Part shown: one piece after another, positions 10,205-60,385 of the stretch | Layout: every line of letters starts with the position of its first letter | Numbering within the stretch: the stretch's first letter is position 1 | Assembly (NCBI RefSeq): GCF_963921235.1 | Contig: NC_086097.1 | Span: 174,408,001 to 174,472,000, forward strand | DNA: 64,000 nucleotides | Source: Mobula hypostoma | Taxonomy: Eukaryota | Direction: 5' to 3' | The notes under the pieces: model-generated | What the model was told of the DNA's origin: nothing | Databases searched by the model: none | The model's input: the letters and a program-made list of their open reading frames with translations, nothing else | Position numbers and translations under genes: made by a program

Positions 10205-11199
10205 AAGCAACACACATCAAAGTTGCTGGTGAACGCAGCAGGCCAGGCAGCATCTCTAGGAAGAGGTACAGTCAACGTTTCAGGCCGAGACCCTTTGTCA
10301 GGACTAACTGAAGGAAGAGCAAGTAAGAGATTTGAAAGTGGGAGGGGGAGGAGGAGATCCAAAATGATAGGAGAAGACAGGAGGGGGAGGGATGGAGCCA
10401 AGAGCTGGACAGGTGGTTGGCAAAGGGGATATGAGAGGATCATGGGACAGGAGTTCCAGGGAGAAAGACAAGGGGGGGGGGAACCAGAGGATGGGCAAGG
10501 GGTATAGTCAGAGGGAGAAAAAGGAGAGTGAGAGAAAGAATGTGTGTATAAAAATAAATAACGGATGGGGTACGAGGGGGAGGTGGGGCATTAGCGGAAG
10601 TTAGAGAAGTCGATGTTCATGCCATCAGGTTGGAGGCTACCCAGACGGAATATAAGGTGTTGTTCCTCCAACCTGAGTGTGGCTTCATCTTTACAGTAGA
10701 GGAGGCCGTGGATAGACATGTCAGAATGGGAATGGGATGTGGAATTAAAATGTGTGGCCACTGGGAGATCCTGCTTTCTCTGGTGGACAGAGTGTAGGTG
10801 TTCAGCAAAGCGGTCTCCCAGTCTGCGTCGGGTCTCGCCAATATATAGAAGGCCACATCAGGAGCACTGGATGCAGTATATCACCCCAGCCGACTCACAG
10901 GTGAAGTGTCGCCTCACCTGGAATGACTGTCTGGGGCCCTGAATGGTGGTAAGGGAGGAAGTGTAAGGGCATGTGTAGCACTTGTTCCGCTTACACGGAT
11001 AAGTGCCAGGAGGAAGATCAGTGGGGAGGGATGGGGGGGGGGGGACGAATGTCCAGCTCTTGGCTCCATCCCTCCCCTTCCTGTCTTCTCCAATCTTTTT
11101 GAAGTCCTGACGAAGGGTCTCGGCCTGAAACGTCAACTGCGCCTCTTCCTATAGATGCTGCCTGGCCTGCTGCGTTCACCAGCAACTTTGATGTATGTT
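10205..11199 (-). mobile_element. Penelope-like element 3' part (GIY-YIG endonuclease remnant) with an inverted second pLTR
   Basis: Minus strand: PGTYPCKRNKCYTCPY...FTCESAGVIYCIQCS*CGLLYIGETRRRLGDRFAEHL; 11051-11199 is an inverted copy of the terminal sequence at 10207-10410. Confidence 0.9.
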
Positions 11200-13649: not shown

Positions 13650-13802
13650 ATGAGTACAGTCAACATTTCGGGTCCTGACGAAGTGTTTTGGCCTGAAATG
13701 TCAACTGTACTCTTTCTCATAGATGCTGCCTGGCCTGCTGAGTTCCTCCAGCATTTTGTGTGTGTTACTTGAATTTTCAGCATCTGCAGATTTTCTCCCG
13801 TT
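13650..13802 (+). mobile_element. Short Penelope-derived insertion with degenerate hammerhead and 14-bp TSD
   Basis: TGTGTCATATATTT at 13636-13649 and 13803-13816; CTGACGA...GAAATGTC core; begins with a short inverted copy of its own downstream sequence. Confidence 0.85.
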
Positions 13803-18756: not shown

Positions 18757-21700
18757 CTATACAAAAGCCCTTATTAGTATAGCAGACAGGTTTACATCTA
18801 CATACTGCAGAAAAGGTTGCCATGTTTTATGAAAACTATTTGTTTTTGAGTGTACCATACATGTCAGAAAGTCCAAAGGAATGTATTCCGTGATTAATCT
18901 ACGCCAACCAAAAAGTCCTGGGGCCTTATCGGATATCCAACAAAGTAAAATATTCTTCCTTGCACAAAAAGTCAGGATGTTAAAAAGTTTTTTCTGATGT
19001 GCATTAATAATATGACTGCTGGGTAAGCCTAAGAGAAAAGACACTGGGTCCAGTTCAAGTTCCATCCTCAGAACCTTTACCATTTTACCCAAAATGTCAC
19101 TCCAGTATGCCTGAAGCTTGGGACAAAAACAGTGGGAGAAAGTTCCAGTGTTTACTTTACATTTAGAACATATTGGAGAAACCCCCGTCTGAAATTTCGA
19201 GAGATGATCTGGAGTCAGATGGGTTCTATGCAGAATTTTGAGTTGCAGTGCTTTAGTTCTATTACAAACTGAAATTTTCTTTGCATTATCACAGATGTCT
19301 TCCCATGTTTCAGCTGTAATTTCTACTCAGCTCTTCCTCCCAGACCTTTCCCAGCTGCTCAGCCTCTCCACAAGAACATTCCCTCAGGATGCTGTAAAAG
19401 TACTAATGGAGTCTTCACCCTTAGAACAAAACACCCTCTTTTCTATGTCAGAACTATAGAAATCAGTTAACAATGATGTTTTTTTCTGTATGTAATCTCT
19501 TATCTGAAAGAAACGAAAAAGATCCTTGTTGGGTATGTTAAATTTCTGTACTATTTGACTAAAAGACATCATCGTTCCTTCATCAAACAAATTTCCTAGA
19601 TGGAAAATACCCTTAGAAATCCAAAGTTTAAATCCAGAATCCATTATGCCAGGCTGAAAAACTGGACTGCCGGTTGTTGGAGTGAAGGGTGATATTTTCG
19701 TTACGTTGCCCTCAATTTATCACACCGCCCTCCAAACCCTGATTGTATTAATTCTTATTGGATTGTGAAAATATTCCTTAACTAGTTTCATCTTATTGAG
19801 GAAAAGCAAATTCGTAAGACGGCATTTTGCTTGTGAAGCTTCAATATCTAGCCAAATTGAGGAGGGGTCCCTGCAAACCCGGTCAACCACATAAAATAAA
19901 AAGGAACTTAATTGATATTTTTTGATGTCTGGAAAATCCGGACCCCCTAGACTACTGGGAAGTTATAACTGAGACATTTTAATACAGGGTCTTTTTTTCT
20001 TCCAGATGAAAAAAACAAACCAGCCATTTATTTTTTTAAAGTATTTGTTGGGTAAAAATGACTGGAATCATTCATATTGGATAGAGCAGACGAGGAAGAA
20101 TGTTCATTTTGAGCAAGGATATTCGGCCAAGCCAAGAAATGGGAAGAGTGCTCTCGCTCAAAATCCTGTTTGATTTTGTCAAATAACTGTGTAAAGTTAG
20201 CTCTGAATATTTGATCAAACGTAGGCCCCCTCGGCCTGAGTCGACGTAGTAGTAGGTGTGATAAATATGCCTAAGTAAACAAAACCTGTCTGCGACACAC
20301 ATCAAAGTTGCTGGTGAACGCAACAGGCCAGGCAGCATCTCTAGGACGAGGTATAGTCGACATTTCAGGCCGAGACCCTTCATCAGGACCAACTGAAGGA
20401 AGAGTTAGTAAGAGATTTGAAAGATTTGAAAATTTGAAACTTGAAAACCTGTCTGCGACCATTTAAAGGGGAAAACACCCTGAGTGTCAGGTACCTGCTG
20501 CAGGTTCCCCAGAGGCATAGCTTCTGATTTAGTAAAGTTTATTTTATAACCTGAAAAGTCACTAAATGAATTGATGCTTTGTATAAGGTGGTGCACTGAT
20601 ATAGCAGGGTTTGATAAGAAAATTAGAACATCATCCGCATACAATGTAATTTTATGTGACTTTAGTCCTATGTCTGGAGCAGATATTTTGGGGTCTCGCC
20701 GAATAGCCTCAGCCAATGGCTCGATCACTAGTGTGAAAAGTAGTGGTGATAAAGGACAGCCCTGCTAGCTGCCCCTCAGAATACTAAAATTATCCGACCT
20801 AATACCATTAGTGAGAACCGCAGCCAAAGGGTCATTATAAAGAACCTTCACCCACTTAATAAAATTATTGCCCAAACCAAATCATTCTAAAGTGAAAAAA
20901 AGATACGACTATTAGACACGATCAAAGGCCTTTTCTGCATCTAAGGAAACCACCAAGCCGTCCACTGCCTGTTGTTGACATGCCTGAATCACATTAAGTA
21001 ATCTTCTAATATTGTTAGATGATCTACGGCCTTTTACAATACCCATTTGATCCTCTTTTATGATAAAAGGTAACACAATTTCTAATCACAACGCTAAGAT
21101 TTTAGATGAGATTTTAAAGTCAACATTTAACAATGAAGTAGGCCTGTAGGAGGCACAATCTTCAGGGCTCTTTCCTTTCTTAAGAATTAGGGAGATATTA
21201 GCTTCTCTCAGTGATGGTGGGAGGAGAACACAGTTAAATGCATGATTGAACATGTTTAGCATAGGCTCTGATAATAACCCTGTGAACTCTTTATAGAATT
21301 CACTAGTGAGTCCATCAGGACCAGGGGCCTTCCCACTTTGGAGCCGTCTCACAGCTTCCTGTATCTCATGTATAGATAACGGAGCATTGAGGACGGACTC
21401 TTGTTCAGAAGAAATGCCTAGGAGATCTAAATTCCTGAAAAAGGACTCCATCCTAGATTGTCCATCATTACCTTGCTCAGATTGATACAATTTAGAATAA
21501 AAATTCTTAAACACAACATTAATCATTTTAGAATTACTAGTGAGGGGTCCTATCCCATTCCTAATTGAAGCAATAGTCTGAAGGGCATTTTTCTTTCTAG
21601 CTAAATGAGCCAAATACCTACTTGGTTTTTCACCATGTTCAAACAATCGTTGTTTAGCAAATGTCAATTTTCTTTTGGCTGCTTGTGTAAGTAAAGAGTT

Positions 21701-33110: not shown

Positions 33111-33203
33111 TGACTTTATAGGGGTTCCTAAAGTCTTGAGAGGCATAGATAAAGTGAATGGTTGCAGTCTTTTTCCCAGGGTGGAGAAGACTTAAACTTG
33201 AGG

Positions 33204-33389
33204 AATACACACAAAGTGCTGGAGGAACTCAGCAAGCCGTGCAGCATCTATGGAAAAAAGTACAGTAGAGGTTTTGGCCGGAAACTTTGACTGTACTTTT
33301 TTCCATAGATACTACCTGGCCTGCTGAATTCCTCCAGTATTTTGTGTGTGTTGCTTGTATTTCCAACATATGTGGATTTTCTTTTGTTT
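33204..33389. repeat. Fold-back (palindromic) Penelope-tail element
   Basis: Two pLTR tails joined in inverted orientation, arms ~33204-33272 and ~33284-33352, centred on TTTTGGCCGGAAA. Confidence 0.85.
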
Positions 33390-33639
33390 CTTAAATTAGA
33401 GAGCATGGATTTAAGGGGAAACATTTAAAGGGGACTTGAGTTTCAAGCTTTTCATACAAGAGAGTGGTGGCTATATGAAGCAAACAGCCAGAAGATCTGG
33501 TAGAAGTGGGTCCAATTGCAATGTTTAAAAAACATTTATACAGGTACAAGTATAAATGTGGTTAAGAGGGATATCAGCCAAATGCAGCGAAATGGGAATA
33601 TCTTCATGAGGCACCTTGGTTTGCATATATGAGTTGGGC

Positions 33640-35073: not shown

Positions 35074-38000
35074 CAGTGCCTATAAAATGTATTCATTCCC
35101 TTGAAAGTTTTCATGTTTTATTGTTTTACAACATTGAATCACAGTGGAATTTATTTGGTATTTTTTACATTGATCAACAGAAAAAAACTCTTTCGTGTCA
35201 AAGTGAAAACAAATCATTTCAAAGTGATCTAAATTAATTACAGGTTTCCCCCGCCATCCGAAGGTAGAGTGTTCCTATGAAACAGTTCGTAAGCTGAAAT
35301 GTTTTAAAACGAAGAAGCAATTACCATTTATTTACATGGGAAAAATTTGTGAGCATTTGCAGACCCAAAAATAACCTACCAAATCATGCCAAATAACACA
35401 TAAAACCTAAAATAACAGTAACATACAGTAAAAGCAGGAATGATATGATAAATACACAGCCTATATAAAGCAGAAATACTTTTCCACAATCATTACTGAA
35501 CTGCTCTCTGTAGCGAAAATCTCGCGCAAGCACCGTCAGCAGAAAATCTCATGCAAGCGCTGTTGGCAAAAACACAGTGCAAGCGCTCTCCAGTAACCTT
35601 TAAGCTATGAAGCTGCCAAATCATACCAAATAACACGTAAAAATACACAGCCTATATAAAGTAGAAATAATGTATGTACAGTATAGTATCACTAGCGGAA
35701 TTGGTTCAGCGCCGAGCACACTGATGATGGTGTGTTAGACTGAGTCGTCGCAGGGTGGGTGGTGCAGTGGCTCCCACCCTCCAGGCTGCCGACAGATACC
35801 GAACCGCGAAGCATGCAGGGGTACAGCGGTAGCTGGGAGGCATCCAGCACATCTTTAAGAAAAAAGCAGAAATAAACATGCTAATTAATTAGGTGCCGCC
35901 CGGCACGTAATTGTCGGCCCAGATCAGTGCCGATTTTGGATTGCGTCGTCTCTGATCTGAGCCGACAATTACGTGTTGGGCAGCACCTAATTAATTAGCA
36001 TGTTTATTTCTGCTTTTTTCTTAAAGATGTGCTGTGTGCCTCCTGCCTACCGCTGCATTCTCTGAGAATCGCGGGGTGGTGGGACACTGGGGTGTCATCT
36101 CGTCATCTGTTTCCATTAGAACAGGCATCTCATCTTCTCCTATGACTGCCTGCCTCGATGTTGAAGGTTGAGGTTCGTCGTCTGCTGTGGCTGATGCGGA
36201 AGGCTTGCTTGACTGCTGAGCCTCGCGCATTTTTCTATCATACAGTTCTTTGTAAGGACTCGAACCATCCTGCAAATATCCCCTAAACCTACGTACCCTT
36301 TCAAAATTAAAGTCGTACTTTATCATTGCAGCGAAAATCTCACGCAATTGCTTCACGTTCAATTCCTGGATGACTTCACTTTCGGTCCGTTTGCTACTGC
36401 ATTCAGTTTCAATTGTTTTCGTATCCTCTTCCAATTGCATCAGCTCTTCATCTATCAGTTCTTGGTCATGGGATGCCAAAACATCTTCCACATCATGTTC
36501 TTCAGCTTCCACAAGCCAAACTCTCTTAGTCCTTACTTCGTTCACCAAGATCGAAACGCTTAATTATGTCTAGTTTTACGCTAAGTGTAACACCCTTACG
36601 AGCTCTTCTGGGCTTTTCCAATACCTTGGAACTCATCTTGCAAATGGCTGCTCACAGGCACCTGTTTAAGCAACGCTGGCTAGAATGCTGTTCCAAATCC
36701 GGGGGAGAGTGTCTGCTTGGGGCACGCGCTGCCTTTTATCGTGCGCTGATATTCCCTGCGCACTGCTTTTTTTTCATAACAGTGAAAACACCTTCTGAAA
36801 GCGAAAACAGGGTACTAATGTAGGTCTTTCGTAACAGTGAGGTTTCGTAAAGCAAACGTTCGAAAAGCGGGGGACACCTGCACAAATATAAAACACAAAA
36901 TAATTGATTGCATAATTACTCACCTCCTTTAAGTCAGTATTTAGTAGATGCACATTTGACAGCAATTACAGCCTTGAGTCTGTGTGGATAGGTCTCTAAC
37001 AGCTTTGCACATCTGGACACTGCAATTTTTCCCCATTCCTCTTTACAAAACTGCTCAGGCTCCGTCAGATTGCACGGGGATTGTGAGTGAACAATCCTTT
37101 TCAAGTCCAGCCACAAATTCTCAATTGGATTGAGGTCTGGACTCTGACTTGGTCACTTCAGGACATTAACTTTGTTGTTTTTAAGCCATTCCTGTGTAGC
37201 ATTGGCTTTAATGCTTGGGGTCATTGTCTAGCTAGAAAACAAATCTCACAAGTCGCAGTTCTCTTGCAGACTGCATCAGGTTTTCCTCCAGGATTTCCCT
37301 GTATTTTGCTGCATTTATTTTACCCTATATTTTCACAAGCCTTCCAGAGCCTGTAGCAGTGAAGCATCCCCACAGCATGATGCAGCCACCATCGTCCTTC
37401 ACATTAGGGATGGTGTGTTTTTGATGATATGCAATGTTTGGCTTATGTTTGGCATTAGTCTGATGGCCAAAAAGCTCAATTTTGGTTTCATGAGACCATA
37501 GAACCTTCTTCCAGCTGACTTCAGAGTCTCCCACATGCCTTCTGGCAAAGACCAGCTGAGCTTTCATGTGAGTGTTTTTCAATCGTGGCTTTCTCTTTTT
37601 GACTCTGCCATAAAGCTACTGGTGAAACACTCAGGCATTAGTTATTGTATGCGTAGTCTTGCCCATCTCTGCCGCTGAAGCTCTTAACTCCTCCAGAGTT
37701 ATCATTGGTCTCTTGGTTGCCTCCCTCACTAGTCCCTTCTTGTACAGTCACTCAGTTTTTGAAGATGACATGCTCTAGGGCAGATTTACGGCTGTCCCAT
37801 ATTCTTGACATTCGTTGATAATTGACTTAACTGTACTCCAAGGGATATTCAGTAACTTGGAAATTTTCTTGTATCCATTTTCGTGGAGTTGCTTTAAGTG
37901 TTCTTTGTCTTCATGGTCTAGTTTTTGCCAGAATACTGACTCACCAGCCGTTGAACTTTCCAGATACTGGTGTATTTTTACTACAATCAATTGAAACACC

Positions 38001-39220: not shown

Positions 39221-40840
39221 TGTGAAATGTTGTCGTAGAAGGGCATCATCGAAGATCCTCACCACCCAGGCCTTGCTCTTTTCTTGCTGCTGCCATCAGG
39301 TAGAAGGTACAAGTGCCTCAGGACTTGCACCACCAGGTTCAAGAACAGTTACTGCCCCTCAGCCATCAGGCTAATGAACAAAAGAGGATAACTACACTCA
39401 TTCTGTTTCTGGTGTTCCCACAACTGATAGTTTCACTTTAACAACTCTTTATCTTGTTTCATACTTTAATTATTTATTGCTATTTATTTATATTTTCAAT
39501 TGCACTTTGTTCATTGATCATGTTACAGTTACTGCTCTATAGCTTTGCTAAGCATGCCCTCAGGAAAAACAATCTCAGGGTTGTTTGTGGTGACGCGTAT
39601 GTACTCTGATAAGAAAGTTTTCTTTGAACTTTGAAACCAGAGCATCTGGAGGAAACCATGTGGTCATGGGCAGAATGTACAAACTCTTTACAAAGGTTAG
39701 CAAGAATTGAACCCAGGTTGCTGACACTGCAAAAACATTAATATAATGGCTGTGCTACTGTGCCATTCCAATTAATGTGCATTTAAAATAGAAAAGTGAA
39801 TATGAAGTCGAAATAGTGGCAGAGCCAGCAGACCCATTTGGATATAGATTCAATTCTGATTGTGTGAAATATGTATATTTTCCCGGAAACTTTTCCCTGA
39901 AATATTTTCCCAATGACATGCAGGTAGGTGGGTTATTTGTCCCCTGTGTGTAGGTAAGTGCTTGAAATTAACAGGAGTTGATGTGAACATAGGGAGAATA
40001 GGTTTGCAGGAAAGTTAGTGGGAGAATGGGATTGCTTTGTTTGCGGGCACAGGTTGGGTGGGGTGATGTGGCCTTCTCATATGTTAAAGGAATATGGAAG
40101 TATTTTAAAGTATTACTCTAAATTTCAAAAAATACAAAACCTATGTTTGTGCCCATTTAAAAGAATCTAGAGAAGACCTGTAATAGGCATTACTACACAC
40201 ATTGAGTAACTTGTTCAAAAACATGTATCTTCAGAAGTGGTAGACAACTAAAAATGAGGATAGAATATGTTCAGTACACAGTAGACTAATCAGCATAGCA
40301 TCAATGGTAGAAACAATAATTGAATCCCTTTTACCATTCAAGGCCATGGGAGAACTTTGGGCCCAATTAATTTTATTGTATTCTCATAAAAAAATTTCTA
40401 GCCTCATATATATAGCTGCACTGGAAATGCTTTGAATTATTTGTACATCTCCATTTGTTAAAGGCAACAATAGTTGAACTTTAGCAGAGATCACAGGGCT
40501 AACTTCAGTGGAGCCAATGTATCTTTTCTGTTTAGACATGCTTATTATCACATGTATGTTTTTGTTTAGCAGTCTCTTTGCAATGATGTTGGTGGGGTGT
40601 TTTAGTATTTGTCTTTCCTTGTTTCTAGCCATCTAGAAAAAGACTGCGAACATCTACCTTATCTATGTTCCTTATGATTGTATACATATGTACAGATTCA
40701 GATTTATTGATCACATGTACTTTGAATCATACAGTGAAATGTGTCATTTGTGTTAACAATCAGCATACCCAAGGATGTACGATGCCAACATAGCATGCCC
40801 ACAGTGTTCAGCAGAACAACGCAAGCAGCAGCAACAACAG

Positions 40841-41140
40841 CCTTGTCTTTCTTCCCGGACCTCCTGTCCCATGATCCTCTCGTATCCCTTTTGCCTATCA
40901 CCTGTCCAGCTCTTGGCTCTATCCCTCCCCCTCCTGTCTTCTCCTATCATTTTGGATCTCCCCCTCCCCTCCAACTTTCAAATCCCTTACTCACTCTTCC
41001 TTCAGTTAGTCCTGACGAAGGGTCTCGGCCTGAAACGTCGACTGCACCTCTTCCGAGAGATGCTGCCTGGCCTGCTGCGTTCACCAGCAACTTTAATGTG
41101 TGTTGCTTAAATTTCCAGCATCTGCAGAATTCCTGTTGTG
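40841..41140 (+). mobile_element. 300-bp Penelope-derived pLTR insertion with 11-bp TSD
   Basis: AGCAACAACAG at 40830-40840 and 41141-41151; closely matches the reverse complement of 10207-10472. Confidence 0.9.
41008..41043 (+). ncRNA. Minimal type I hammerhead ribozyme motif (predicted cleavage after C41039)
   Basis: AGTC / CTGACGA / AGG-GTCTCGG-CCT / GAAA / CG / TC / GACT: complete core, stems I and II paired, palindromic ACGT in place of stem III. Activity is not shown. Confidence 0.8.
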
Positions 41141-42062
41141 AGCAACAACAGAAGCTACTTTCCCTCTCAAACACCCACCCACCCACATACACCACAAGCC
41201 TCCAACACCAGGACAGACCTCCTCTGCGCCTCCACTCCCTGGCCCTGGACTCTTATATTCTCAGACATCAAGCCTTCAGCTCTGGACTTGTCAGCTTTGG
41301 TCTTCGACCCTCAGGCTTTCAATGACTGGATTTGCTGAGCTCTGGACTATGACCTGCTGTAAACTAATGATGTACATTTATTTAATGTACATCATTAGTT
41401 TACAATAGTCTTTTAACTTGTTGCCATACAGTTTATTTTTGGTGTAACAGACTGCTGCACCAAATGATGACAATTAGTTTCTAAAGTCCTGTGGTCAAAA
41501 TGCCACTATTGATAAAGGTAAAAATTGGAACTTTTTAAACTTTTTATGGTTAGTCAATATTTTACAAACATACATTTGATCCCCAGTGCTTTAGTTGTAA
41601 TTACTTTTTGAAGTGGGGCAAAATAGAGGCTTACAGCAATGGAATATGATGGGAATTTGGGCTATGTCAGATTAGGGATAGTGAGTTCTTGGAACCTCAA
41701 TGAAAAGCCAAGCACTATTATGGAAGTTCACTATCAATATAGCAGACCATGAAATGAAGTTGGATAAACTTATGTTGAATTTAAAAAAAGGTAGCATGAA
41801 GGAAGAATGCCAATTTTAAGAAAGAATGTGCACCTGTCATTGTGAATTGGATCTGTGAATACTTAGTTGCCATAGAAGGCTTGATTCTTTTTGGCTTTCA
41901 AAGTTGTTTCTCTGACCCAGTTCTTTATCCTTTCAAGTATTCTACCTTGGCATAACTTATTTTTAATTTTGTGATTAAAATAGTGCTGAATAAATACAAA
42001 CTTTTTTGAGTGATTTGCATCAATTTTTATTCTTCCTGGCACTATTCAGATCTCAATCCGTA

Positions 42063-49129: not shown

Positions 49130-50370
49130 TTCACTGATAAGGGCAGAGCTCAAGTAGCTTGAATATGTAGAATTCCATATTGATTCCAGAAGGCTGCTGT
49201 GTACCCAGGTGGAAGATGAGGTGCTGTTCCTCAGGTTTGTATTTGGGATTATTGTAACATAACAGGAGGCCATAGACTGAAGTTTGAGTAGGATGGAGAA
49301 TAAAAATTGTAGAAAATGGGAAACTCAGGGTCACCCCCATGGACTGAACTTGGGTGTTTTGTTGCAAAGTGATCACATGATTTGCATGTGGTTTCTCCAA
49401 TGTGAAGGAGACTATGTTTGAGCGTAGTCCACTAGACTGGAAGAAATAAAGTAAATTATTGCTTCACTTGGAAAGGTTGTTTGGTCCCAGGGTGGTGGTA
49501 GGAGAACAGGTAAAAGCACAAGAGTTGCATTACTGCCAATAACAAGAAAAATATTGTAAGTAGGGAGTTGTTACTGGGAATGGAATAATGAACCAGGGAC
49601 TAGTCCCTGCAAAAAGCTGAAAAATAAAGCGAAGAAGATGTGTCTGGTGGTGCAATCTTTCTGATGGTGGTGGGAATTATGGATTATGATCTATTAAATG
49701 CATACTTTGGTGGGGTGGAAGGAAATACTCAGGGGAACTCTGCTCTTGTTCTGACCTGGAGGAGAGGTGGTGAGAGTAGAAGGCTGAGAAATTGATGACC
49801 TGTGGCCAAGGCCTTTATTAACAATGGTAGAGGGGAAGCCATGCCTCAGGAACAAGGAAGACATTTCAGAGGAATATGTATGGAAAATCAAAGCAAATAC
49901 AATGGAGATGGTGGAAATAGGAAGCAGTGTGGGGAGAAGTGTGGTTGAGATAACTGAAGGAGTCAGTAAGCATGTAATGGATGTTAGTTGCTCGTCCAGC
50001 TCCTGAGATAGAGACCAAGAGATCCAGAAAAGAGATTGATTAAGTGATGGTATGGACAAGATGGAAATTGGCAGCAAAAGTAATCAAATTATTGAGTTCT
50101 GCATGAGTACAGGAAGAAAGCAGTACCAAAGCAGTAATCGATTCCACCAGAAGGAGAGTTGAAAGAGTGGACCAGCAGGGAGTTGAAACAAAGACTATTC
50201 CACATACCCAATGATAAAGACAGGTCTTGTTATCCCAACCTGGAACATCTAATGATTAAGCACCAACTGTTCTACTTACTGAGAGAGTTCTTTGCTGTGA
50301 TCCTGATTGCAGTTTATATACTGCTAAAGACAGATGTTAAGCAAACACTCGATGAATTGAGTGTCATGAT
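49130..50370 (-). mobile_element. Degraded Penelope-like RT/GIY-YIG remnant
   Basis: SEMSSLFLRHGFPSTIV, RVPLSISFHPT, EEQHLIFHLGTQQPSGINMEF. Confidence 0.75.
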
Positions 50371-60247: not shown

Positions 60248-60385
60248 GCTATTTTTATGATTCCCACCAACCCACCACCAACATTCCGGAAGCCAGAACT
60301 TTGGTCAGATGAGTTCACAGATTTTGTTAAGAAGTGTCTAGTGAAGAATCCAGAGCAAAGAACAACTGCCACACAACTATTACAG
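60248..60385 (+). CDS. STK3: Internal coding exon (138 nt, phase 0/0) of STE20-like kinase STK3/MST2, C-terminal lobe of the kinase domain
   Basis: Polypyrimidine tract and TAG acceptor (60245-60247); frame reads [48 protein letters not shown] donor at 60386. This matches the MST1/2 exon as I recall it, and KKCLVKNPE fits STK3 rather than STK4 (KQCLVKSPE). Confidence 0.93.

Follow-up and report, generated by a model that had tools for sequence, protein, structure and literature searches.

Minimal type I hammerhead ribozymes (min-HHRs) in the pseudo-LTRs (pLTRs) of Penelope-like elements (PLEs), taken as established in the earlier note on this DNA, were indeed described in 2014 (Cervera and De la Pena, PMC4209133). 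The accessible text of that paper reports no cleavage for monomers and weak cleavage for dimers, and maps the end of an intron of the D. virilis Penelope to helix I. For PAc, which is a Poseidon element from the green anole, hammerhead cleavage was seen only when the protein of the element was present (Frangieh et al. 2024, PMC11167929); in its accessible parts, the same report describes the anole hammerhead as dispensable for insertion in vitro, finds no RNA-seq ends at the cleavage site and traces the PLE tail of 30-40 nt to two internal starts of reverse transcription. For Xenopus, cleavage is reported for one of nine dimers (bioRxiv 10.64898/2026.07.22.740005, accessible text). Whether PLE hammerheads cleave in vivo, and for what purpose, is the question of the field.

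Hammerheads are also found in non-LTR retrozymes: those of chondrichthyans have a mean length of 363 bp and are linked to PLEs in one chondrichthyan, and retrozyme monomers frequently sit within introns (42-44% in Xenopus; accessible text of bioRxiv 10.64898/2026.07.22.740005). Domesticated intronic hammerheads of the amniote type are described as few-copy and deeply conserved, with helix III and tertiary contacts (PMC7229834, PMC6155905). On the protein side, the Neptune and Nematis PLEs are characterised by a CX2-5CxxC linker (Craig et al., bioRxiv 10.1101/2021.04.23.441226). Cartilaginous fish are absent from the available rows of the Fig. S3 alignment of PMC4209133, and the accessible passages found on hammerheads with shark and Penelope yielded no shark data. 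The literature titles listed include none on the present PLE family in rays; subscription papers and bioRxiv supplements may cover it.

The window analysed here is a stretch of 64,000 nucleotides of Mobula hypostoma (NC_086097.1, positions 174,408,001 to 174,472,000 of the forward strand); all coordinates below count from its first letter. At 41 kb it contains a 300-nt unit (40841-41140) with a hammerhead motif. The reading that we prefer, with a probability of roughly 0.88, is that this unit is a dead-on-arrival insertion of a Neptune/Nematis-type PLE, carrying a solo hammerhead that most likely causes no relevant cleavage of STK3. The features are:

10205-11050, minus strand: longer copy of the family, in which the pLTR, with G8>A in its hammerhead, is preceded by a broken GIY-YIG endonuclease end (10591-11031)
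11050-11199, plus strand: pLTR piece in inverted orientation with which the 10205-11199 insertion starts at its 5' end, containing the hammerhead at 11103-11138 with G1.1>A
20292-20423, minus strand: another young copy of the pLTR, the third, in antisense and flanked by a separate 16-bp TSD (20281-20296/20444-20459)
40830-40840, plus strand: left TSD, 11 bp, within a different repeat's CAG/CAA-like tail
40841-41108, plus strand: 5'-truncated PLE 3' UTR or pseudo-LTR, with the truncation at a C-run
40993-41005, plus strand: pyrimidine tract ending in CAG, similar to a 3' splice site; the predicted fold pairs it with the catalytic core
41007-41044, plus strand: minimal type I hammerhead with helix I, core C3-A9, extra A41019, 4-bp helix II, GAAA and ACGU
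41039-41040, plus strand: predicted scissile bond C17/G1.1, from hammerhead numbering
41109-41140, plus strand: PLE 'tail' of about 32 nt, which only some of the copies have
41141-41151, plus strand: right TSD, 11 bp, exact duplicate of 40830-40840
60248-60385, plus strand: coding exon of STK3 (MST2)

On inspection of the sequence, all conserved hammerhead positions are present and intact in the 41-kb copy, and the earlier claim of an intact minimal core is thus correct. The CUGACGA core (C3-A9) is at 41012-41018, GAAA (G12-A15.1) at 41032-41035, C15.2-G16.2 at 41036-41037, U16.1 at 41038 and C17 at 41039; both the CUGANGAH box and the GAAA-N-N-U-H box are unbroken. Helix I forms as the earlier note had proposed, by pairing of AGUC (41008-41011) with GACU (41040-41043), and is extended by a U•G pair (41007/41044). 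Helix III is absent and, also as proposed, the palindromic ACGU at 41035-41038 is found in its place (the 15.2-16.2 palindrome); hammerhead numbering predicts the cut after C17, at the suggested position 41039. It is the helix II of that proposal that has to be replaced: the AGG/CCU register (A-U, G-C, G-C) has a pair probability of about 0.02 and was rejected, whereas predicted folds of the isolated motif favour G10.1•U11.1, G-C, G-C and U•G, with A41019 unpaired, at pair probabilities of 0.88-0.97, a register that agrees with the layout of published min-HHRs. At position 11.1, U is the majority letter in four public runs, with C in 17-24% of the depth.

A descriptor of the minimal hammerhead matched twice in the window (41012, plus strand, and 20386, minus strand) and once in 200 dinucleotide shuffles of it; the motif is thus not a chance occurrence. 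An Rfam scan of the 64-kb window with E up to 1 returned five matches, none of them to a hammerhead family, and viral contigs scanned for the motif gave no match. By sequence, the 41-kb motif is a PLE min-HHR of the kind described by Cervera and De la Pena in 2014: it shares with the accessible description in PMC4209133 the CUGANGAH core, the extra nucleotide before 10.1, GAAA-N-N-UH, the palindrome at 15.2-16.2, a short helix I, a pyrimidine-rich 5' flank, the position downstream of an endonuclease and the occurrence mostly as solo copies from 5'-truncated elements. It differs from the consensus of that paper in having G10.1•U11.1 instead of G-C, a G•U that several of the Fig. S3 members also have, and in its short helix II of 4 bp.

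The unit around the motif is bounded by an exact 11-bp TSD (40830-40840 = 41141-41151), as the earlier note had reported, and this 11-mer occurs only these two times in the window. Between 40841 and 41108 the unit is 92.9% identical, over 269 nt, to 10473-10205 (minus strand), which is the 3' end of the GIY-YIG-bearing copy at 10205-11050; the Penelope derivation claimed for it is thereby supported. In this longer copy, a GIY-YIG endonuclease is represented at 10591-11031 by its C-terminal part; a single in-frame stop interrupts it, its core contains two cysteines and its linker reads CX4CxxC; the Pfam GIY-YIG match is weak on the window piece (E 0.036) and above cut-off in two of three homologous loci. 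Of the sibling copies, those at 10205, 20292 and 11199 stop near the equivalent of 41104-41108, and the copy at 13672 continues; among the loose contig ends listed from public DNA runs, clusters are found near 41107-41109 and 41139, at the two ends of the tail. Loose contig ends of other copies in these runs extend upstream into C-runs. The identity to the end of the GIY-YIG fragment, the TSDs of 11 and 16 bp, the tail and the inverted 5' piece together indicate a PLE insertion. The 41-kb unit represents a GIY-YIG PLE that was truncated from its 5' side and of which the 3' end, pLTR and 32-nt tail, remains.

The Neptune/Nematis type of the parent element is suggested by its linker motif, no RT of the family having been recovered. 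Like the EN+ PLEs of this type in the accessible text of bioRxiv 10.1101/2021.04.23.441226, the window family has a C-terminal GIY-YIG, core cysteines and the CX2-5CxxC linker, and its insertions show 5' truncation, an inverted 5' piece, a tail, TSDs of variable length and a location next to simple repeats. With PAc (PMC11167929, accessible text) it has in common the hammerhead in the pLTR and a tail that is delimited by two insertion ends separated by 30-40 nt; unlike PAc, a Poseidon element, it has the CX4CxxC linker of the Neptune/Nematis type. An older PLE-like coding remnant at 49169-50083 (minus strand) matches the endonuclease end weakly and has no Pfam match. Directly upstream of the unit lies another dispersed repeat (40676-40830), and the PLE piece is inserted in its CAG/CAA-like end.

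A stop-free frame of 195 codons spans the unit. It has no match in PDB, and a Pfam search of four open frames over the unit gave none either; we therefore reject a coding role, which agrees with the lack of a credible ORF stated by the earlier note. The part that follows the hammerhead (41045-41140) is predicted to fold as a multibranch, with a closing helix that uses the tail; this could be a protein-binding structure or the structure at which reverse transcription starts.

A non-coding unit of about 300 nt with a type I hammerhead and of pLTR origin also resembles non-LTR retrozymes (accessible text of PMC7229834 and bioRxiv 10.64898/2026.07.22.740005), and the unit could be a member of a non-autonomous non-LTR family, retrozyme- or SINE-like, that is mobilised as a fixed 300-nt piece. 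We consider this quite unlikely. The length of the unit is close to the mean of the chondrichthyan retrozymes and many contig ends are at 40841; however, the loose ends at 40841 run into C-runs, as they do in the endonuclease-bearing copy, and the 5' ends differ among the copies of the window. Moreover, retrozymes are tandem units with a hammerhead in each, whereas the 41-kb unit is a solo TSD-flanked copy that has no tandem neighbour, the nearest young copies being 20 and 30 kb off.

The right junction of the insertion is apparently common to a second organism, in which 26 nt of tail are joined to the flank, fewer than the bridging rule of 31 nt; the insertion may thus not be very recent. In contigs, the flanks of the two organisms differ by about 1% (6 of 455 and 7 of 586 letters). 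The 15 joints listed (of 242) include no empty site, and the 24 loose ends listed (of 1773) include none at 41040; neither listing counts as evidence.

For the motif as such, the earlier note had stated that absence of stem covariation would speak against it; covariation of helix I is present in families of other hosts. A metagenome search with a pattern that fixed the hammerhead core and left helix I free gave at least 121 loci, none of which matched the window family (blastn, 1e-6), and which accordingly test the motif class only. Full flanks are available for 65 distinct cores, and in 40 of these helix I reaches at least 3 bp, compared with 0-32% when the arms were slid and a mean of 26% when partners were swapped. 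In an alignment of 71 cores (69 of the 70 distinct metagenome cores, one being without flank, plus two copies from the window), helix I shows 77% pairing, a covariation score of 0.54 versus 0.02-0.19 when slid, and 63 double-change cells (0 of 500 shuffles); the rows of this alignment are mutually related and come from the families of other hosts, not from the window family. A protein-level match to the endonuclease of the window is found in 31 of the 121 metagenome loci listed, and in 28 of these 31 the motif is 72-173 nt downstream of the endonuclease on the same strand. Contigs of distant subfamilies stop aligning at 41008 (three of four runs) and at 41044 (all four) among the rows listed, and these are the ends of helix I. 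The covariation of helix I across related families in other hosts indicates that the motif is selected in the element.

A profile search found 12 related terminal copies in the window, eight on the plus and four on the minus strand, about one per 5 kb. Five window copies are scored by the covariance model, two of whose members are window copies by construction. The family to which the 41-kb unit belongs is very large: over the motif, public DNA runs give a contig depth that sums to several million, versus about 12 in the flanks (the sum is not a copy number). The stretch from C3 to G1.1 has five substitutions in the three other young copies, every one of them a transition at CpG, and the 41-kb copy owes its intact state solely to its four CpGs having so far escaped mutation.

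The host gene is recognised from a single exon at 60248-60385, which has AG and GT ends and matches human STK3 at 43 of 45 residues; with ten homologous proteins, no other STK3 exon was found in the 64-kb window. The statement that the hammerhead is sense to STK3 holds for the strand, both being on plus; its location in the pre-mRNA would follow if the 41-kb unit is in an STK3 intron longer than 60 kb, with the upstream exon outside the window, as we infer. This intron shows no depletion of sense copies, which make up 8 of the 12. The CAG-ended pyrimidine tract immediately 5' of helix I (40993-41005) could be a cryptic acceptor in the sense orientation of STK3. A 110-bp inverted repeat, 90% complementary and with a spacer of 12 nt, is present at 35824-36055; its scores for miRNA families are all below threshold.

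That the 41-kb copy has become a regulator of STK3, in the manner of the conserved intronic hammerheads of amniotes, is extremely unlikely. The copy is intact, sense and possibly common to two organisms, but the flanks of these organisms differ by so little (about 1%) that the sharing is no sign of constraint, and the identity of about 93% to its siblings extends over the entire unit and not the motif alone. Furthermore, unlike the domesticated amniote hammerheads in the accessible descriptions, the 41-kb motif is a high-copy repeat without helix III and without loop-loop elements. A function of the hammerhead in STK3 is unsupported.

The predicted folding of the 41-kb copy is unfavourable to cleavage. 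Even in the isolated motif, predicted pairing joins the core to the substrate strand, GACG to CGUC, with a probability of at least 0.98. When upstream sequence is added, the pyrimidine tract pairs over the core and the probability of helix II is at most 0.005 in four of four contexts; the ribozyme fold in context has a predicted probability below 1% and the dimer-ready state a predicted cost of 4.2-8.3 kcal/mol. The designed one-site dimer has -10.5 kcal/mol, compared with -31.7 for the inactive cofold and -11.7 for each of two folded monomers. All of these models describe equilibrium and ignore proteins and co-transcriptional kinetics. A purpose-built anti-ribozyme hairpin in the upstream sequence is unproven, as 43 of 300 shuffles inhibit equally.

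The earlier note had proposed that the STK3 pre-mRNA could be cleaved by pairing of the 41-kb copy with the copy at 11103-11138, and this finds no support on either side. The proposed partner is 29.9 kb upstream, in the inverted arm of the 10205-11199 insertion; its G1.1>A breaks the closing pair of helix I, which affects the substrate half and leaves the enzyme half intact, and in the predicted fold nine of ten sampled positions are engaged by the antisense copy that lies 797 nt upstream. The 41-kb copy, besides its predicted misfolding, faces two antisense copies within its own transcript that are 91-94% complementary to it.

A conditional activity can nevertheless be envisaged, in which the STK3 intron is cleaved at a low rate when the 41-kb copy pairs with a sense copy (the one at 11103, another one in the gene, or a PLE transcript in trans), chaperoned by the PLE protein. 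The core positions are all intact, the 11103 copy could in principle act on the 41-kb site with its enzyme half, partners in trans may be common in so abundant a family (about one copy per 5 kb), and the published PLE hammerhead did cleave once the protein of its element was supplied (PMC11167929, accessible text). We nevertheless regard this activity as unlikely: the designed dimer lies energetically far above the inactive cofold and the folded monomers, the 11103 partner is predicted to be occupied by its antisense copy, sense copies are not depleted in the intron, and for the anole element the accessible text of the same paper finds no RNA-seq ends at the cleavage site. A more elaborate version, in which PLE protein or transcripts trigger the dense, sense, intact hammerheads in host pre-mRNAs such as that of STK3, and the pyrimidine tract with CAG serves as an off switch released by splicing, is very unlikely; if true, the introns of cartilaginous fish would be subject to a further, transposon-dependent level of cleavage.

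For the preferred reading, a dead-on-arrival PLE insertion, published work on PLEs suggests the following course. The GIY-YIG nickase of the element would have cut AC-rich DNA; reverse transcription would have begun at the outer of two internal start sites, giving the 32-nt tail, and halted after 300 nt at the C-run, and repair would have left the 11-bp duplication. As published for other PLEs, a hammerhead without helix III would have an active site only when two copies pair through ACGU, probably assisted by the element's protein. Selection on the min-HHR would have acted in the parent element's tandem RNA. At STK3 it would be a solo passenger in a long intron, mostly misfolded and without a realistic partner; on these models, cleavage of the STK3 pre-mRNA at the 41-kb copy to a biologically relevant extent is most likely not taking place.

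The 41-kb copy is then one more instance of the 2014 motif, in a lineage with very abundant PLEs. A genome with about one relic per 5 kb would be a good statistical test ground, and the 41-kb locus alone has no special leverage. Two older pLTR copies at 33190-33390 form an inverted head-to-head pair, and both are without the 5' half of the hammerhead. Contigs in three of four runs join 41042 back to 41008 at low depth, equivalent to a head-to-tail duplication of the hammerhead alone; a comparable back-joint of 35 nt is present at 40894-40860 in one run, and the joint of 41042 to 41008 may be generic.
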